Origin: a phage
Sequence record: PX880100.1
DNA: 64,000 nucleotides
Direction: 5' to 3' (one strand)
In this document: positions 13,046-49,170 of the stretch, piece by piece
How the letters are laid out: every line of letters starts with the position of its first letter
How positions within the stretch are numbered: the stretch's first letter is position 1
Notes under the pieces: model-generated
Seen by the model: only the letters and a program-made list of their open reading frames with translations
What the model was told of the DNA's origin: nothing
Databases searched by the model: none
Program-made: the position numbers and the translations under genes

Positions 13046-13660
13046 ATGAGATTACCAGACCCATACACGAATCCAGAACTTTCAGGCTTAGGATTCGAAA
13101 GTGTTAACCTGATTGATAATGACCCAGTAATTCGTGATGAGTTACCAAATGGTAAAGTTAACGAAGTTAAAGTATCTGCTCAATACTGGGGTATAAATAT
13201 TTCTTACCCAGAACTGTTTCCAGATGAGTATAGTGTTCTAGATTCTTTTATTTTAGAGTACAAAAGAACTGGGGGCTACATAGATGTCATATTACCACAA
13301 TATGAGGCTTTTAGGGTTAGAGGTAACACTGGCTTAGTAAATATACCTGCTGGACAGAAGGGTTCTAATATAACTATGGATACAAAAGGGCTTCTTACAG
13401 GTACCCCAAAACCGGGGGATCTATTTAAGCTGTCTAACCACCCAAAAGTATATAAAATAACATCATTTAACAAATCAGGTAATACATGGTCTATAAACTT
13501 ATACCCTGATTTATTTATAACTACTACTGGAGCGGAGAAGCCAGTATTTAATGGAATACTATTTAGAACAAAACTCATGAATGGTGATGCTTTTGGATCT
13601 ACACTAAATAATAACGGAACATACTCCAACATCTCATTAAATTTACGGGAAAGTCTATGA
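13046..13660 (+). CDS. distal tail protein (T5 pb9-like, 204 aa)
   Basis: Same length as T5 pb9 and same position directly after the tape measure and before the baseplate hub. Confidence 0.8.
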   Translation: MRLPDPYTNPELSGLGFESVNLIDNDPVIRDELPNGKVNEVKVSAQYWGINISYPELFPDEYSVLDSFILEYKRTGGYIDVILPQYEAFRVRGNTGLVNIPAGQKGSNITMDTKGLLTGTPKPGDLFKLSNHPKVYKITSFNKSGNTWSINLYPDLFITTTGAEKPVFNGILFRTKLMNGDAFGSTLNNNGTYSNISLNLRESL

Positions 13661-16506
13661 AAAAAATATTAGATAGTGCTAGAAACTACTTAAAAAATAA
13701 TAGCAGAATAAAAACTGCTAGTCTAATTTCTCTAGAATTACCCGGCTCTACTGGTACTAGTACTGCTTTTATTTACTTAACTGACTATTTTAGAGATGTA
13801 CTATATAATGGTATTTTGTACCAGGCCGGTAAAGTTAAGTCTATTAGCACACATAAACAAAATAGAGATTTATCTATTGGCAGCCTATCTTTTACTATTA
13901 CAGGTACAGCACAGGATGAAGTACTGAAATTAGTGCAGAATGGTGTATCCTTTTTAGATAGACTAGTATCAATCCACCAAGCAATTATTACAGAGAATGG
14001 TTCTATTTTACCTGTAGACCCAGACACAAATGGCCCTTTATTATACTTTAGAGGGAGAATTACTGGTGGAGGTATTAAGGACAATATCAATACTTCTGGG
14101 GTTGGAACCTCCACAATTACTTGGAATTGTTCTAACCAATTCTATGATTTTGATAGGGTTAATGGTAGATTTACTGATGATGCTTCTCATAGAGGGCTTG
14201 AGGTTGTAGCAGGACAATTAGTTCCCTCTAATGGGGCTAAAAGACTTGAGTACCAGGAAGATTATGGGTTCTTTCATGCCAATAAAAGTATCTCTATTTT
14301 AGCAAAATATCAGGTACAGGAAGAAAGATATAAGCTAAAGTCTAAGAAAAAACTATTTGGTCTATCTAGAAGCTATAGTCTTAAAAAGTACTATGAGACT
14401 GTTACTAAAGAAGTAGATATAGATTTTAACCTTGCTGCTAAGTATATACCAGTAGTTTATGGTGTACAGAAAATACCGGGAATACCTATTTTTGCGGATA
14501 CGGAATTACACAATCCTAATATAGTTTATGTAGTATATGCTTTTGCTGAAGGAGAGATAGACGGTTTTCTTGACTTTTCCTTTGGGGATAATCCCATGAT
14601 TTGTATGGACTCTAATGATAGTTCTGCTAGAACCTGTTTCGGTGTTAAAAAAGTAGCCGGAGACACCATGCAAAGAATAGCATCAGGAATATCTTCTAGT
14701 AGTCCTTCTGTGCACGGTCAGGAATATAAATATAATGATGGTAATGGTGATATAAGGATTTGGACTTATCATGGAAAAGCTGATCAAACGGCTTCTGAAG
14801 TATTAGTAAATATAGCGAAGGAACGTGGGTTCTATCTCCAAAATATGAACGGTAATGGGCCTGAGTACTGGGATGCTAGATATAAACTATTAGATACTGC
14901 ATACGCGGTAGTACGCTTTACTATTAATGAAAATAGAACTGAGATCCCAGAAGTTAGTGCTGAGATTCAGGGTAAGAAGATAAAAATCTATCATTCTGAT
15001 GGTAGAGTAACTGCTAATAGCACTAGTTTAAATGGTATCTGGCAAACACTTGACTACTTAACTTCAGATAGGTATGGCGCAAATATTACTATTGATCAGT
15101 TTCCTCTCCAACAATTAGTACAAGAAGCTGCTATCTTAGATATTATAGATGAATCTTACCAAGTATCCTGGCAGCCATACTGGAGATATGTTGGGTGGAC
15201 TGATCCATTAGCAGAAAATAGACAAATAGTACAAATGAATACTATTCTAGATACATCTGAATCAGTATTTAAAAACGTGCAGGGTTTGCTAGAGTCCTAC
15301 GGTGGGGCTATTAACAACTTATCTGGTCAATATAGGATTACTGTAGAAAAATATTCTAATACTCCATTAGAGATTAATTTTCTGGATACTTATGGTGATT
15401 TAGAGCTATCAGATACTACTGGTAGAAATAAATTCAACTCAGTTCAAGCATCCATAGTAGACCCAGCTCTTAGCTGGAAAACTAACTCTATTACCTTTTA
15501 TAACTCTAAATATAAAGAGCAAGATAAAAATTTAGATAAAAAATTACAATTATCTTTTGCAAATATAACTAACTACTATACTGCTAGAAGTTTTGCAGAC
15601 AGAGAACTTAAGAAATCTAGGTATTCTAGAACCCTCTCATTTTCTTTACCATATCAATTCATTGGTATTGAGCCTAACGATGCTATTGCATTTACATACG
15701 ACCGTTACGGATGGGATAAGAAGTACTTTTTAGTAGATGAAGTCGAAAACTCTAGGGAAGGAAAGATAAATGTTACTCTACAGGAGTATGGGGAAGATGT
15801 ATTTATCAACTCTGATCAAGTAGATAATAGTGGTAATGATATACCAGATATTAGTAACAACGTTCTTCCTCCTAGAGATTTTAAATATACTCCTACACCC
15901 GGTGGTTTAGTTGGTTCTATAGGAAAAAATGGTGAGCTATCTTGGCTTCCAAGCTTAACTAATAACGTAGTTTATTATTCTATCGTGCATTCCGGTCATG
16001 CTGAGCCTTATATTGTGCAGCAACTAGAAACAAATCCCAATGAACGCATGATCCAAGAGATAATTGGAGAGCCAGCAGGTTTAGCAATATTTGAAATAAG
16101 GGCTGTGGATATAAACGGTAGAAGAAGTTCTCCAGTAACATTATCTATAGAACTTAATTCTGCTAAAAACCTAAGCGTAGTATCTAATTTTAGGGTAACT
16201 AATACGGCTTCTGGGGATGTAACTGAGTTTGTAGGCCCAGATGTAAAACTAGCTTGGGATAGGATACCAGAAGAAGATATAATAGAAAGTATATTCTATA
16301 CTCTGGAAATCTATGATTCTCAGAATAGAATGCTAAGAAGTGTACGTATTGAAAATCAGTATACTTATGACTATTTATTAATATATAATAAGGCAGATTT
16401 TGCTCTCCATAACAGCGGTGCTCTAGGGATCAATAGAAAACTATATTTTCGTATTAGAGCAGAAGGAGATGATGGAGAACAGTCTGTGGAGTGGGCATCC
16501 ATTTAA
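13657..16506 (+). CDS. baseplate hub / tail tip protein (T5 pb3-like, 949 aa)
   Basis: Same length as T5 pb3 and conserved gene order (distal tail protein, hub, pb4). Confidence 0.8.
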   Translation: MKKILDSARNYLKNNSRIKTASLISLELPGSTGTSTAFIYLTDYFRDVLYNGILYQAGKVKSISTHKQNRDLSIGSLSFTITGTAQDEVLKLVQNGVSFLDRLVSIHQAIITENGSILPVDPDTNGPLLYFRGRITGGGIKDNINTSGVGTSTITWNCSNQFYDFDRVNGRFTDDASHRGLEVVAGQLVPSNGAKRLEYQEDYGFFHANKSISILAKYQVQEERYKLKSKKKLFGLSRSYSLKKYYETVTKEVDIDFNLAAKYIPVVYGVQKIPGIPIFADTELHNPNIVYVVYAFAEGEIDGFLDFSFGDNPMICMDSNDSSARTCFGVKKVAGDTMQRIASGISSSSPSVHGQEYKYNDGNGDIRIWTYHGKADQTASEVLVNIAKERGFYLQNMNGNGPEYWDARYKLLDTAYAVVRFTINENRTEIPEVSAEIQGKKIKIYHSDGRVTANSTSLNGIWQTLDYLTSDRYGANITIDQFPLQQLVQEAAILDIIDESYQVSWQPYWRYVGWTDPLAENRQIVQMNTILDTSESVFKNVQGLLESYGGAINNLSGQYRITVEKYSNTPLEINFLDTYGDLELSDTTGRNKFNSVQASIVDPALSWKTNSITFYNSKYKEQDKNLDKKLQLSFANITNYYTARSFADRELKKSRYSRTLSFSLPYQFIGIEPNDAIAFTYDRYGWDKKYFLVDEVENSREGKINVTLQEYGEDVFINSDQVDNSGNDIPDISNNVLPPRDFKYTPTPGGLVGSIGKNGELSWLPSLTNNVVYYSIVHSGHAEPYIVQQLETNPNERMIQEIIGEPAGLAIFEIRAVDINGRRSSPVTLSIELNSAKNLSVVSNFRVTNTASGDVTEFVGPDVKLAWDRIPEEDIIESIFYTLEIYDSQNRMLRSVRIENQYTYDYLLIYNKADFALHNSGALGINRKLYFRIRAEGDDGEQSVEWASI

Positions 16507-46840: not shown

Positions 46841-47038
46841 TTAGACACTTAAAATACTTCTAATCTCTTCTATATACTTATCTACTTTTTTAGCATCTAC
46901 TTTACTTAGTTTTCCTATGTCAAAATCAGGATCAGTAAACATTCTAGCTATCTCTATCTCTAGAGACTTACTAATTTTCCCTGTAGTATTCCACTTAGAA
47001 ATCTTACCTTTTATCTTCCAAAATTCCTTATTCATCAT
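46841..47038 (-). CDS. hypothetical protein (65 aa)
   Basis: Last ORF of the operon; Lys-rich; ATGATG start at 47038 overlaps the end of the frameshifted paralogue. Confidence 0.35.
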   Translation of the reverse strand: MMNKEFWKIKGKISKWNTTGKISKSLEIEIARMFTDPDFDIGKLSKVDAKKVDKYIEEIRSILSV

Positions 47039-47421
47039 TTAACCCCGGAACATATATCCCAACACGGTTTAATTGTTCTTTAGCTTCTTTGAGAATATCT
47101 GGAGTGTACTCCCAAATATCATCTTCCACCTGTAAAAAAATGGGGCGAACAACCATCATCCGGCACACGACATATGGCCAAACAACGTGGATGGAACAAA
47201 GAGAAATTTAGGGCAACAATTAAACCCATAGCAGACAATTCATTCCAATCCAATTCCCATTCCCCGGCGTATCCAGACAGGAAAACGCCAATGCATGGAT
47301 CATCTATTTGCTGCTCAGGAAAAGTGAAAGAGACTTGTCTTACCCCCAACCAACGTTGTAGCAGCTTCTCCGCACGTTTCACCAAACTAGGATCAATCTG
47401 ACGCCAATATACTTGTTCCAT
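47028..47421 (-). pseudogene. frameshifted paralogue of ORF 47431-47859 (frame change at an A7/T7 run at 47134-47140)
   Basis: Track ORF 47119-47421 aligns with the neighbouring paralogue only up to SPHFF, then stops; the homologous C-terminus (LQVEDDIWEYTPDILKEAKEQLNRVGIYVPGLNDE vs FQVNERYGWSYSPEEVNDGIQKLRRFGYMIPGLTA) continues in another frame from the homopolymer run to 47028. Confidence 0.55.
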
Positions 47422-47430
47422 TCTGCCTCC

Positions 47431-47859
47431 TTAAGCAGTTAAACCTGGGATCATATACCCGAAACGGCGAAGTTTTTGGATACCATCATTCACTTCTTCT
47501 GGTGAGTAAGACCAACCATAACGTTCATTAACCTGAAAACCAGGAGATTCACTAGTTTTATAGTTAACAACGAGGCGATGCTTAGCAGACATAAACAGCT
47601 TATAGTTTAACGCAAAAACTAAGCCCATTTCATCTAACTCTTTCCAGCCGACAATCTCTTCAAGGCCCTCTTCTACCTGAACAATTAAACCAATACAGGG
47701 GGCCTCATCAATATCATCTTTAAAAGCAAAGGAGATTTCGTTATTCTCACACCATATTTTCAAGGAGTTAATAGCCTCATTATACAGGCTAGCCGGGAGA
47801 GTACGCCAAAAGTTAACCAAAATTGGGTTAGCTTCTTTAGAGAAGACATTATTAAACAT
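47431..47859 (-). CDS. hypothetical protein (142 aa), intact paralogue
   Basis: Shares the central motif PCIG(L/V).....(V/S)GWKELDEMGL(V/I)(F/V)ALN with the frameshifted neighbour. Confidence 0.45.
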   Translation of the reverse strand: MFNNVFSKEANPILVNFWRTLPASLYNEAINSLKIWCENNEISFAFKDDIDEAPCIGLIVQVEEGLEEIVGWKELDEMGLVFALNYKLFMSAKHRLVVNYKTSESPGFQVNERYGWSYSPEEVNDGIQKLRRFGYMIPGLTA

Positions 47860-47861
47860 AT

Positions 47862-48374
47862 TTACACCTTAAATTGTTGTAGGGCTTTACACATTTCAAG
47901 ATCTGGACTAAATTCTAACATATAGCTAACAGCTTTTAAATCCTGAAGATTTATCCCGGTCCTACCGTTGACTATAACCGTTGGATACTGATACATCATA
48001 GCACCCCCATCATCAAGCACACACCAATGTTTGAGCTTATGCTTTTCAACGAAGCGAAGAACAGAATTACCCCTAGATAATCCACCCCCAGTAAAATCCG
48101 TTGTACCAAGAAAACGATCGATAAGACCTAATCCGGTCATAATCTGAACGTTCTCCATCTCATTTCTGACAGAGAACCAAGATGATACTCCAACAATCAT
48201 TATCGGAGAAGGACGAATAAAGTCCTGAAAAGCCTTGAGAAGCGGTTTGAAAACCCAGTCACTTCCAAAGAAAATCTTTTCATCATCAGGTGCATGATGG
48301 TGGGAGATGCTTGAATTGAGCACCCCATCAATGTCCAGAAAAATAATTGGAGTATTACTTATTTCCTGACACAT
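47862..48374 (-). CDS. HAD-superfamily phosphatase-like protein (170 aa)
   Basis: HAD motif I FLDIDGVLN near the N-terminus and motif IV-like CVLDDGG; substrate not inferable. Confidence 0.5.
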   Translation of the reverse strand: MCQEISNTPIIFLDIDGVLNSSISHHHAPDDEKIFFGSDWVFKPLLKAFQDFIRPSPIMIVGVSSWFSVRNEMENVQIMTGLGLIDRFLGTTDFTGGGLSRGNSVLRFVEKHKLKHWCVLDDGGAMMYQYPTVIVNGRTGINLQDLKAVSYMLEFSPDLEMCKALQQFKV

Positions 48375-49170
48375 GAGGTCTACCCCCTAAATGAGCTTCT
48401 ACACGAGCAATAAAATCAGGATCACTGAAAGCATCTACCGCACCTTTACTCCAGTAAGGGATACCGCGTTCTTCCAGCTGGTACATCTCACTACGAGTCA
48501 TACCTTGATAGCCAGGTTCCGCCGCTAGGGCACTATCATAGTAGTTAACAACCATTAGCTTGGCAGCAGTCAAATTAAGAACAGGAAATAGTTCCCAGTA
48601 GAAGTTAATTACTTGGTTAGAGCAACCAACCACAATGATCATATCTTGACTGGTAATACCATCAAAAACATTGTACATTTCCGCATATGCTGGAGCATGC
48701 TCTCCAAAGAAGATTACATTAGGTTTAACCCATTTATAATCATCTGGATCAATAGAATTGTATCCTACATCAATAATCCGTTTATTGCTACTATTGTAGC
48801 TATCAGCTACAACAACCTCTTTTAAATATCCGTGAATGTGCAGAATGTCACTATGTGGAACGCCAGCACGCTCAATAAGGTCATCAACGTTGGTAGTCAA
48901 GTTTACTACTTGACCTGGATATTGTTTATACCATTCACCAATACGCAAATGCGCAAGATTGGGTTCAACAGTTTTTAGCTCTTCACGACGCCTGTTGTAA
49001 AACATATGGGTTTTATGATAAAAATTACCACGAAAGGCATGAATATTGCATACCTCTTCTAAGTCATAATCATCCCACAATGCTTTACCACTAGCAGTAT
49101 CAGTACGGAAGGCTCGTACACCGCTTTCAACACTCAAACCTGCACCGCTAATAACAATTAATCTACGCAT
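48355..49170 (-). CDS. Sir2 (sirtuin)-family NAD-dependent protein, Zn-ribbon-less (271 aa)
   Basis: Sirtuin signature blocks: GAGLSVESGVRAFR (GAGIS-ESGIP-FR), TTNVDDLIERAG (TQNID-LH-RAG), catalytic HIHG, VKPNVIFFGE, IVVGCS; no CxxC...CxxC zinc module. Confidence 0.65.
   Translation of the reverse strand: MRRLIVISGAGLSVESGVRAFRTDTASGKALWDDYDLEEVCNIHAFRGNFYHKTHMFYNRRREELKTVEPNLAHLRIGEWYKQYPGQVVNLTTNVDDLIERAGVPHSDILHIHGYLKEVVVADSYNSSNKRIIDVGYNSIDPDDYKWVKPNVIFFGEHAPAYAEMYNVFDGITSQDMIIVVGCSNQVINFYWELFPVLNLTAAKLMVVNYYDSALAAEPGYQGMTRSEMYQLEERGIPYWSKGAVDAFSDPDFIARVEAHLGGRPHVSGNK

Follow-up and report, generated by a model that had tools for sequence, protein, structure and literature searches.

Why should one of two adjacent, related genes in a phage genome lose its reading frame exactly at a run of seven identical bases? 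The question arises in a 64,000-nucleotide stretch of phage DNA (sequence record PX880100.1; hereafter the window). The original prediction for this locus, made from the letters of the window, offered a pseudogene, a sequencing error or a programmed frameshift as explanations, and raised a phase-variable gene or a site giving two protein isoforms as further possibilities. Here we describe the two genes and the break, the states of the run in related phages, the fate of both genes in those phages, and the evidence bearing on slippage at the run.

The tandem DUF7415 pair and the break in its second copy

The locus belongs to the early genes of a T5-like phage (Tequintavirus) and is encoded on the minus strand. 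From upstream to downstream, in window coordinates, the features are as follows.

48355–49170, minus strand: Sir2-like gene, the most upstream of the neighbours listed.
47862–48374, minus strand: HAD_SAK_2-like gene (Pfam PF18143, E=8.8e-20).
47431–47859, minus strand: paralogue A, intact, 142 aa, a hypothetical protein of DUF7415/phrog_2502 (from the ORF list).
47426–47430, minus strand: GGAGG Shine-Dalgarno sequence ahead of the gene B start, read from the sequence TAAGGAGGCAGAATGG.
47028–47421, minus strand: gene B as a whole, the second copy of the pair, with its ATG at 47421.
47119–47421, minus strand: frame-0 part of gene B, 100 codons plus TGA at 47119–47121 (from the ORF list).
47134–47140, minus strand: T7 run (A7 on the plus strand), the frameshift site as located by alignment with relatives.
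47028–47135, minus strand: C-terminal part of gene B in the +1 frame, 35 codons plus TAA.
46841–47038, minus strand: 65-aa gene downstream of gene B (phrog_29527, E=1.1e-40).

On the 3′ side of the 65-aa gene there is a non-coding stretch, followed by a D5-like/replication-origin-binding gene. A simple terminator scan flagged no hairpin after the 65-aa gene; relatives annotate a terminator there. Labels at this locus vary across GenBank records: the DUF7415 genes are called 'tail tube protein', 'exonuclease' or 'tail protein', and the HAD_SAK_2-like gene is called 'Sir2 NAD-dependent deacetylase' via phrog_18062. These inconsistent labels look like propagated mis-annotations.

The adjacent genes had been described as clear paralogues, and BLASTP, Pfam DUF7415 and phrog_2502 agree on this. 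By BLASTP, paralogue A matches the first 100 codons of gene B (E=3e-14, 37% identity over 73 aa) and also the C-terminal part of gene B in its other frame, read as a 46-aa ORF (E=2e-6). Against Pfam DUF7415 (PF24187; gathering threshold 27 bits), paralogue A scores 120.9 bits (E=2.5e-35), the reconstructed gene B product 108.9 bits (E=1.3e-31) and the truncated 100-aa product of gene B 107.3 bits (E=4.4e-31), all three above the threshold. The phrog_2502 match has an E value of about 1e-61 for both A and B (2.7e-61 for A). An internal duplication within the protein was also considered and found unconvincing, with a BLASTP E value of 0.23 between the N- and C-terminal halves and a second Pfam stretch below threshold. 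The pair is the one known from T5, in which two tandem DUF7415/PHROG 2502 genes (ORF098 and an 'Aeh1ORF298c-like' gene; AY587007) stand in the same order and likewise in an early-region operon, with the HAD_SAK_2-like gene on one side and the replication-origin-binding/D5-like helicase gene on the other. In T5 and most relatives, however, both DUF7415 copies are intact, whereas in the window the second is frameshifted.

The break has the form that had been predicted. The downstream copy loses its frame at the 7-nt run at 47134–47140, and frame 0, which reads ...TCG CCC CAT TTT TTT ACA GGT GGA AGA TGA, stops five codons past the run. Gene B is thus shifted out of frame after codon 96 and acquires the out-of-frame tail FTGGR, its product ending ...CSPHFFTGGR. 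The homologous C-terminus (LQVEDDIWEYTPDILKEAKEQLNRVGIYVPGLNDE, then the stop codon) continues in another frame from 47135 to 47028; this segment, LQVEDD...GLNDE, lies in the +1 frame and ends with TAA. As a refinement of the original prediction, restoration of the frame needs a +1 (or −2) shift, and a full-length protein would carry the junction peptide ...CSPHFLQVEDDIWEYTPDILK (SPHFLQVEDD). Reference relatives read CCCCA-TCTTTTACAGG at this site (CAT CTT TTA CAG, encoding H L L Q) and the window reads CCCCATTTTTTTACAGG. In that alignment, the T7 run is the one place at which the window departs from these relatives.

For the protein, the main consequence is loss of the C-terminus. The 100-aa product retains the Pfam-defined DUF7415 match, which covers residues 3–54. 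AlphaFold2 was run on an intact orthologue of the T6 type (P0003); the model is confident (pLDDT 90.5, pTM 0.85) and shows a compact alpha/beta protein whose last strand (residues 94–97) and last helix (residues 107–120) are placed past the break, and five of the 18 columns that are invariant across both paralogues fall after it. Judged against this model, the main product is predicted to be a 100-aa protein that has the N-terminal DUF7415 domain and lacks the conserved C-terminal strand and helix. Since the GGAGG motif is present before its ATG, gene B is still set up for translation. The 65-aa gene begins before gene B would normally end, the two sharing 11 nt (47028–47038, ATGATGAATAA), and translation of the 65-aa gene may be coupled to full-length reading of gene B. 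Because the frameshift ends translation of gene B 81 nt upstream, such coupled translation could be weakened in this phage.

Run states in relatives and authenticity of the T7 allele

With a 1.1-kb query, 422 phage records were matched, the top one being 96% identical; the genome of the window is in none of the collections searched, and exact look-ups of the 100-aa product, the reconstructed 130-aa product and paralogue A gave no match. The gene B orthologue is a single uninterrupted 393-nt CDS (130 aa) in SaI_NFG_5581, HASG4, Spc35 and T5; the ORF is uninterrupted in 34 of the 38 sequences compared, and all 21 clusters returned from a database of 5.8 billion proteins are 128–136 aa long. Among the 29 sequences scored at the site itself, 23 have TCTTTT, four have T6 and two have T7. 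After targeted searches, in-frame T6 was found in seven distinct phages (ABTNLsp4, STyj5-1, S124, phB7, Kenya-K18, MM-1 and MM-2), including the two nearest relatives of the window in gene B, STyj5-1 and S124, which are 97–98% identical to it. A tblastn search for the T7 tail (...SPHFFTGGR) among 440 phage records with a homologue returned only Citrobacter phage vB_CfrD-Cit2 (hereafter Cit2). Kenya-K20, which had appeared to be a further frameshifted genome, proved to be intact (SPHLLQVGDD), its tblastn alignment having run on by chance. An exact-pattern scan of IMG/VR, JGI metagenomes and GTDB genomes found no T6 to T9 alleles.

Given that TCTTTT is the majority state, that T6 occurs in seven phages and that T7 occurs in two, the aligned sequences place the states in the order TCTTTT (ancestral and non-slippery), T6 by a C>T change that replaces L with F in frame, and T7 by an inserted T. 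At the level of sequence, these comparisons demonstrate that the frameshift is a derived and rare state and that T6 is its intermediate.

The distribution of T7 bears on how often the run has changed length. Over gene A plus the 5′ half of gene B, the nearest sequences to the window are the T6 phages STyj5-1 and S124 (0–7 differences), from which Cit2 differs at 15–19 positions. Within the 235 bp around the run (47028–47262), the extra T aside, Cit2 is one substitution away from S124 and the window three. A T6 genome thus lies between two T7 genomes, so by these haplotypes the run must have changed length at least twice, either through two insertions or through an insertion and a reversion, with a very short gene conversion as the alternative. 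Under any of these histories, the sequences indicate a mutationally labile run. The same rare T7 in two phages that are only about 94% identical could instead have been kept by selection.

A different possibility is that the phage is truly T6, as are STyj5-1 and S124, and that the extra T was miscalled in sequencing or assembly. Those two nearest relatives in gene B are one base shorter at the site, homopolymers are classic places for indel miscalls on some platforms, and the C-terminal part of gene B is without any decay, all of which would suit an error. We nevertheless consider an error unlikely. The identical T7 is present in Cit2, a different phage with 93.6–95% identity to the window over 6 kb (about 94%), which was assembled with SPAdes from Illumina NovaSeq reads (PMC12980165), a platform on which consensus miscalls of 7-nt runs are rare. 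In addition, about 58 kb of the window was aligned to Salmonella phage FGS017 and every indel was listed, with compensated pairs in divergent stretches and indels in multiples of three set aside. In this audit, no conserved gene carried an uncompensated frameshift other than the base inserted in gene B, which is placed at 47139. All remaining single-base indels fall between genes, for the most part at A/T tracts shortly before a start codon; five are located in A/T runs of 4–7. The window holds 46 A/T runs of six, and since no other A/T run in the aligned part shows a coding frameshift, its consensus is not noisy and the error rate per run must be low. Gene B is, moreover, demonstrably lost elsewhere through lesions outside homopolymers. 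The sequencing error offered by the original prediction is thereby left with little likelihood, on account of the independent Cit2 allele and the want of any other uncompensated coding frameshift across the aligned 58 kb or so.

Losses of gene B and retention of paralogue A

All 38 sequences compared carry an intact paralogue A of 142 aa, and gene B is broken in four of them, namely in the window, Cit2, AZ23 and Kenya-K18, by three kinds of lesion. In AZ23 (LC788707; positions 1080–1472 of L003), codon 8 of gene B is changed from CAG to TAG and a later TAG follows; in Kenya-K18 (OQ291031; about 955–1347 of L037), a G5 run in gene B is shortened to G4 and the start codon is GTG in place of ATG. 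Recurrent disruption of gene B is evident from these sequences, and the pseudogene or mutation reading among the original explanations gains support from them: T7 goes back to an in-frame T6, other phages have lost gene B by different lesions, and paralogue A is never broken. We infer that gene B is the dispensable member of a redundant pair, with the caveat that the four cases come from 38 sequences that are not independent of one another. We found no published essentiality data for gene B; HIDEN-SEQ does not include T5-like phages, and the DRT9 escaper study deals with T5 genes other than gene B.

Gene B has some of the marks of a frameshift pseudogene, in that its ORF is broken by a derived mutation relative to intact orthologues and independent inactivations occur elsewhere. 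What would be expected next of a frameshift pseudogene, namely additional lesions or a loosening of constraint, was not seen: the C-terminus in the +1 frame contains no stop and no indel, and its protein sequence is that of the intact orthologues. An undecayed C-terminus would be expected if the event were very recent, if the extra T were a sequencing error or if the C-terminus were still in use. Private substitutions say little about relaxed constraint, since those of the window at invariant residues (G80C in B and P91S in A) are too few to judge it and paralogue A carries a similar one.

Two neighbouring observations concern other sequences. In Cit2 (OP745948; 1612–2314 of L033), the HAD_SAK_2-like gene is annotated as two CDSs of 210 and 279 nt; in relatives it is a single CDS of 507–513 nt. 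Single-base indels at positions 1620 and 1751 of the Cit2 locus flank a divergent stretch, a possible second case of accessory-gene disruption in Cit2. In an Escherichia coli assembly, a gene B homologue (P0005; NCBI AB0U73_23165) ends ...EQLNQYRGPHQYHL instead of ...EQLNRVGIYVPGLNDE, which could be another disruption of the 3′ end or a contig-end artefact.

Possible slippage at the run and the meaning of the insertion

Could the run itself be functional, either as a phase-variable toggle or as a site where programmed transcriptional slippage or +1 ribosomal frameshifting yields the 100-aa and 130-aa proteins in a set ratio? Several observations would suit such a role, including two or more changes of run length within a shallow clade, the presence of T7 in two diverged phages and the full preservation of the C-terminal frame. 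We nonetheless hold it to be very unlikely. Conservation is lacking: in most relatives a non-slippery TCTTTT stands within an unbroken ORF, and T7 is found in only two genomes.

For the ribosome, the slippery codon is suitable. In CAU UUU U|UUA, tRNA-Phe can re-pair from UUU to UUU in the +1 frame, and the next codons, UUA CAG, are then those of the T6 allele. The direction of the shift and the perfect re-pairing open to the P-site tRNA recall +1 frameshifting of the prfB type; unlike that type, however, gene B has no in-frame stop, rare or slow codon in the A-site, where UUU or ACA stands, and no Shine-Dalgarno stimulator upstream, the preceding UGGUUGUUCGCCCCA being without a GGAGG-like motif. 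The downstream RNA structure is ordinary (z=−0.16). A −1 ribosomal frameshift on the U-run was rejected as a candidate, as it enters the wrong frame, a third and unrelated one (27-aa ORF, 47069–47152). The programmed frameshift of the original prediction is therefore not upheld, even by that prediction's own yardstick of an intact ORF in related phages, given the uninterrupted and mostly TCTTTT ORF of the relatives compared, the occurrence of T7 in only one other record of 440 and the lack of stimulators.

Transcription offers a second route. T5-like phages are transcribed by the host RNA polymerase. In published reporter assays and RNA sequencing, slippage of the E. coli enzyme needs at least seven Ts and has a strong poly(T) bias; rescue by single-base deletion was about 10% on T8, and indels amounted to about 0.8% at T6/T7 (PMC6260861). 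The run in gene B, with seven Ts in the sense strand, is at this published minimum, so with the host polymerase a leaky rescue is possible, and deletion of one U from the gene B transcript restores exactly the protein of the T6 allele. Extrapolating from the rates for T6 to T8, roughly 1–10% of the transcripts (about 1%, and at most about 10%) may lose one U and encode full-length B. As a source of such a leak, transcriptional slippage is more plausible than +1 ribosomal slippage. Known programmed sites of the IS-element, Thermus dnaX and Shigella mxiE type, by contrast, are conserved runs of 8–9 or more, and the slippage threshold in many bacteria is about 9, occasionally 8 (Baranov et al., 2005, PMC1088944); the run in gene B is seven long and unconserved. 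A closer likeness is to frameshift pseudogenes rescued by slippage, where, as in gene B, the lesion is a one-base indel at an A/T run and orthologues keep the ORF whole (PMC1088944, PMC6260861). Documented efficient rescue nevertheless involves runs of 8–11, and at a run of seven, right at the threshold, only a small rescue is to be expected.

The spectrum of homopolymers gives the run a further context. A/T runs of 4, 5 and 6 occur in the 64-kb window about as often as expected (523, 157 and 46 observed against 543, 168 and 52). Runs of 7 number two against an expectation of 16 ± 4, runs of 7 or more two against about 16–23, and runs of 8 or more none against about 6.5. Taking the window together with FGS017 (L038, 49 kb), which shows the same abrupt stop at six, runs of 7 are depleted 6- to 14-fold under both Markov models. 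The only other A7 in the window is at 13660–13666, in codons 2–4 (Lys-Lys) of a 949-aa ORF on the plus strand (13657–16506). This cliff at 7 lies below the threshold of about 9 reported for many bacteria and matches the minimum T-run for slippage by E. coli RNA polymerase. With tracts of 7 or longer otherwise nearly eliminated from the genome, a persisting one stands out, which counts to some degree in favour of a functional site.

As for phase variation, the data at the run are T6 in seven phages, T7 in two, and haplotypes that imply at least two events. Like a contingency locus, gene B has on and off alleles that are one base apart (T6 on, T7 off), with an apparent recurrence of at least two; contingency tracts, however, are usually longer and conserved in the gene, whereas the tract in gene B is a recent by-product of a C>T change and is absent from most relatives. 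The irreversible lesions in other phages also fit dispensability better than regulated switching. A phase-variable gene, or a site giving two isoforms, keeps a small residual possibility, which comes from the two or more length changes together with the published polymerase slippage. Its strongest form, for which we see a very slim chance, slimmer than for a functional site in general, is a genuine slippage switch in a lytic phage, in which toggling of the DNA between T6 and T7, combined with low-level slippage by RNA polymerase, would tune or silence one DUF7415 paralogue. Were such a switch to exist, it could for instance hide the phage from a host defence that recognises the full-length protein, with the basic function left to paralogue A, and the scarcity of further runs of this length or longer would mark the T7 run as tolerated for a reason.

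Taken together, the evidence favours the following account, which we think probable: T7 is a real and recent one-base insertion, most likely made by replication slippage in a dispensable paralogue, and it truncates gene B. A C>T change in the ancestral TCTTTT would have made the in-frame T6 run, in which replication slippage presumably added one T. The inserted base moves gene B out of frame after codon 96 and leaves the 100-aa protein as the main product. T7 would persist through the dispensability of gene B, probably because paralogue A backs it up. Slippage by RNA polymerase would let a small fraction of transcripts, each one U shorter, encode full-length B, as an incidental leak and with no evolved mechanism behind it. 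We therefore rank a recent real mutation first, as the likely explanation, an assembly error second, with a modest chance, and an evolved recoding or phase-variation device last, as hardly probable. The event is an ordinary one of a well-known kind; nothing found here points to programmed frameshifting, and the run is no conserved recoding signal.

In practical terms, gene B is best annotated as a frameshifted, possibly leaky copy of a 130-aa DUF7415 protein. The Cit2 record lists it as two small hypothetical ORFs; annotation of that sort is unsuitable, as would be the label 'programmed frameshift'. The most interesting by-product of the analysis is that the A/T-run cliff coincides with the run length at which the host RNA polymerase begins to slip, a match that possibly merits a comparative study of its own. 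For the T5-like phages, the losses described here appear to provide natural evidence that the second DUF7415 paralogue is dispensable and the first is not, which would help to prioritise among their early genes.
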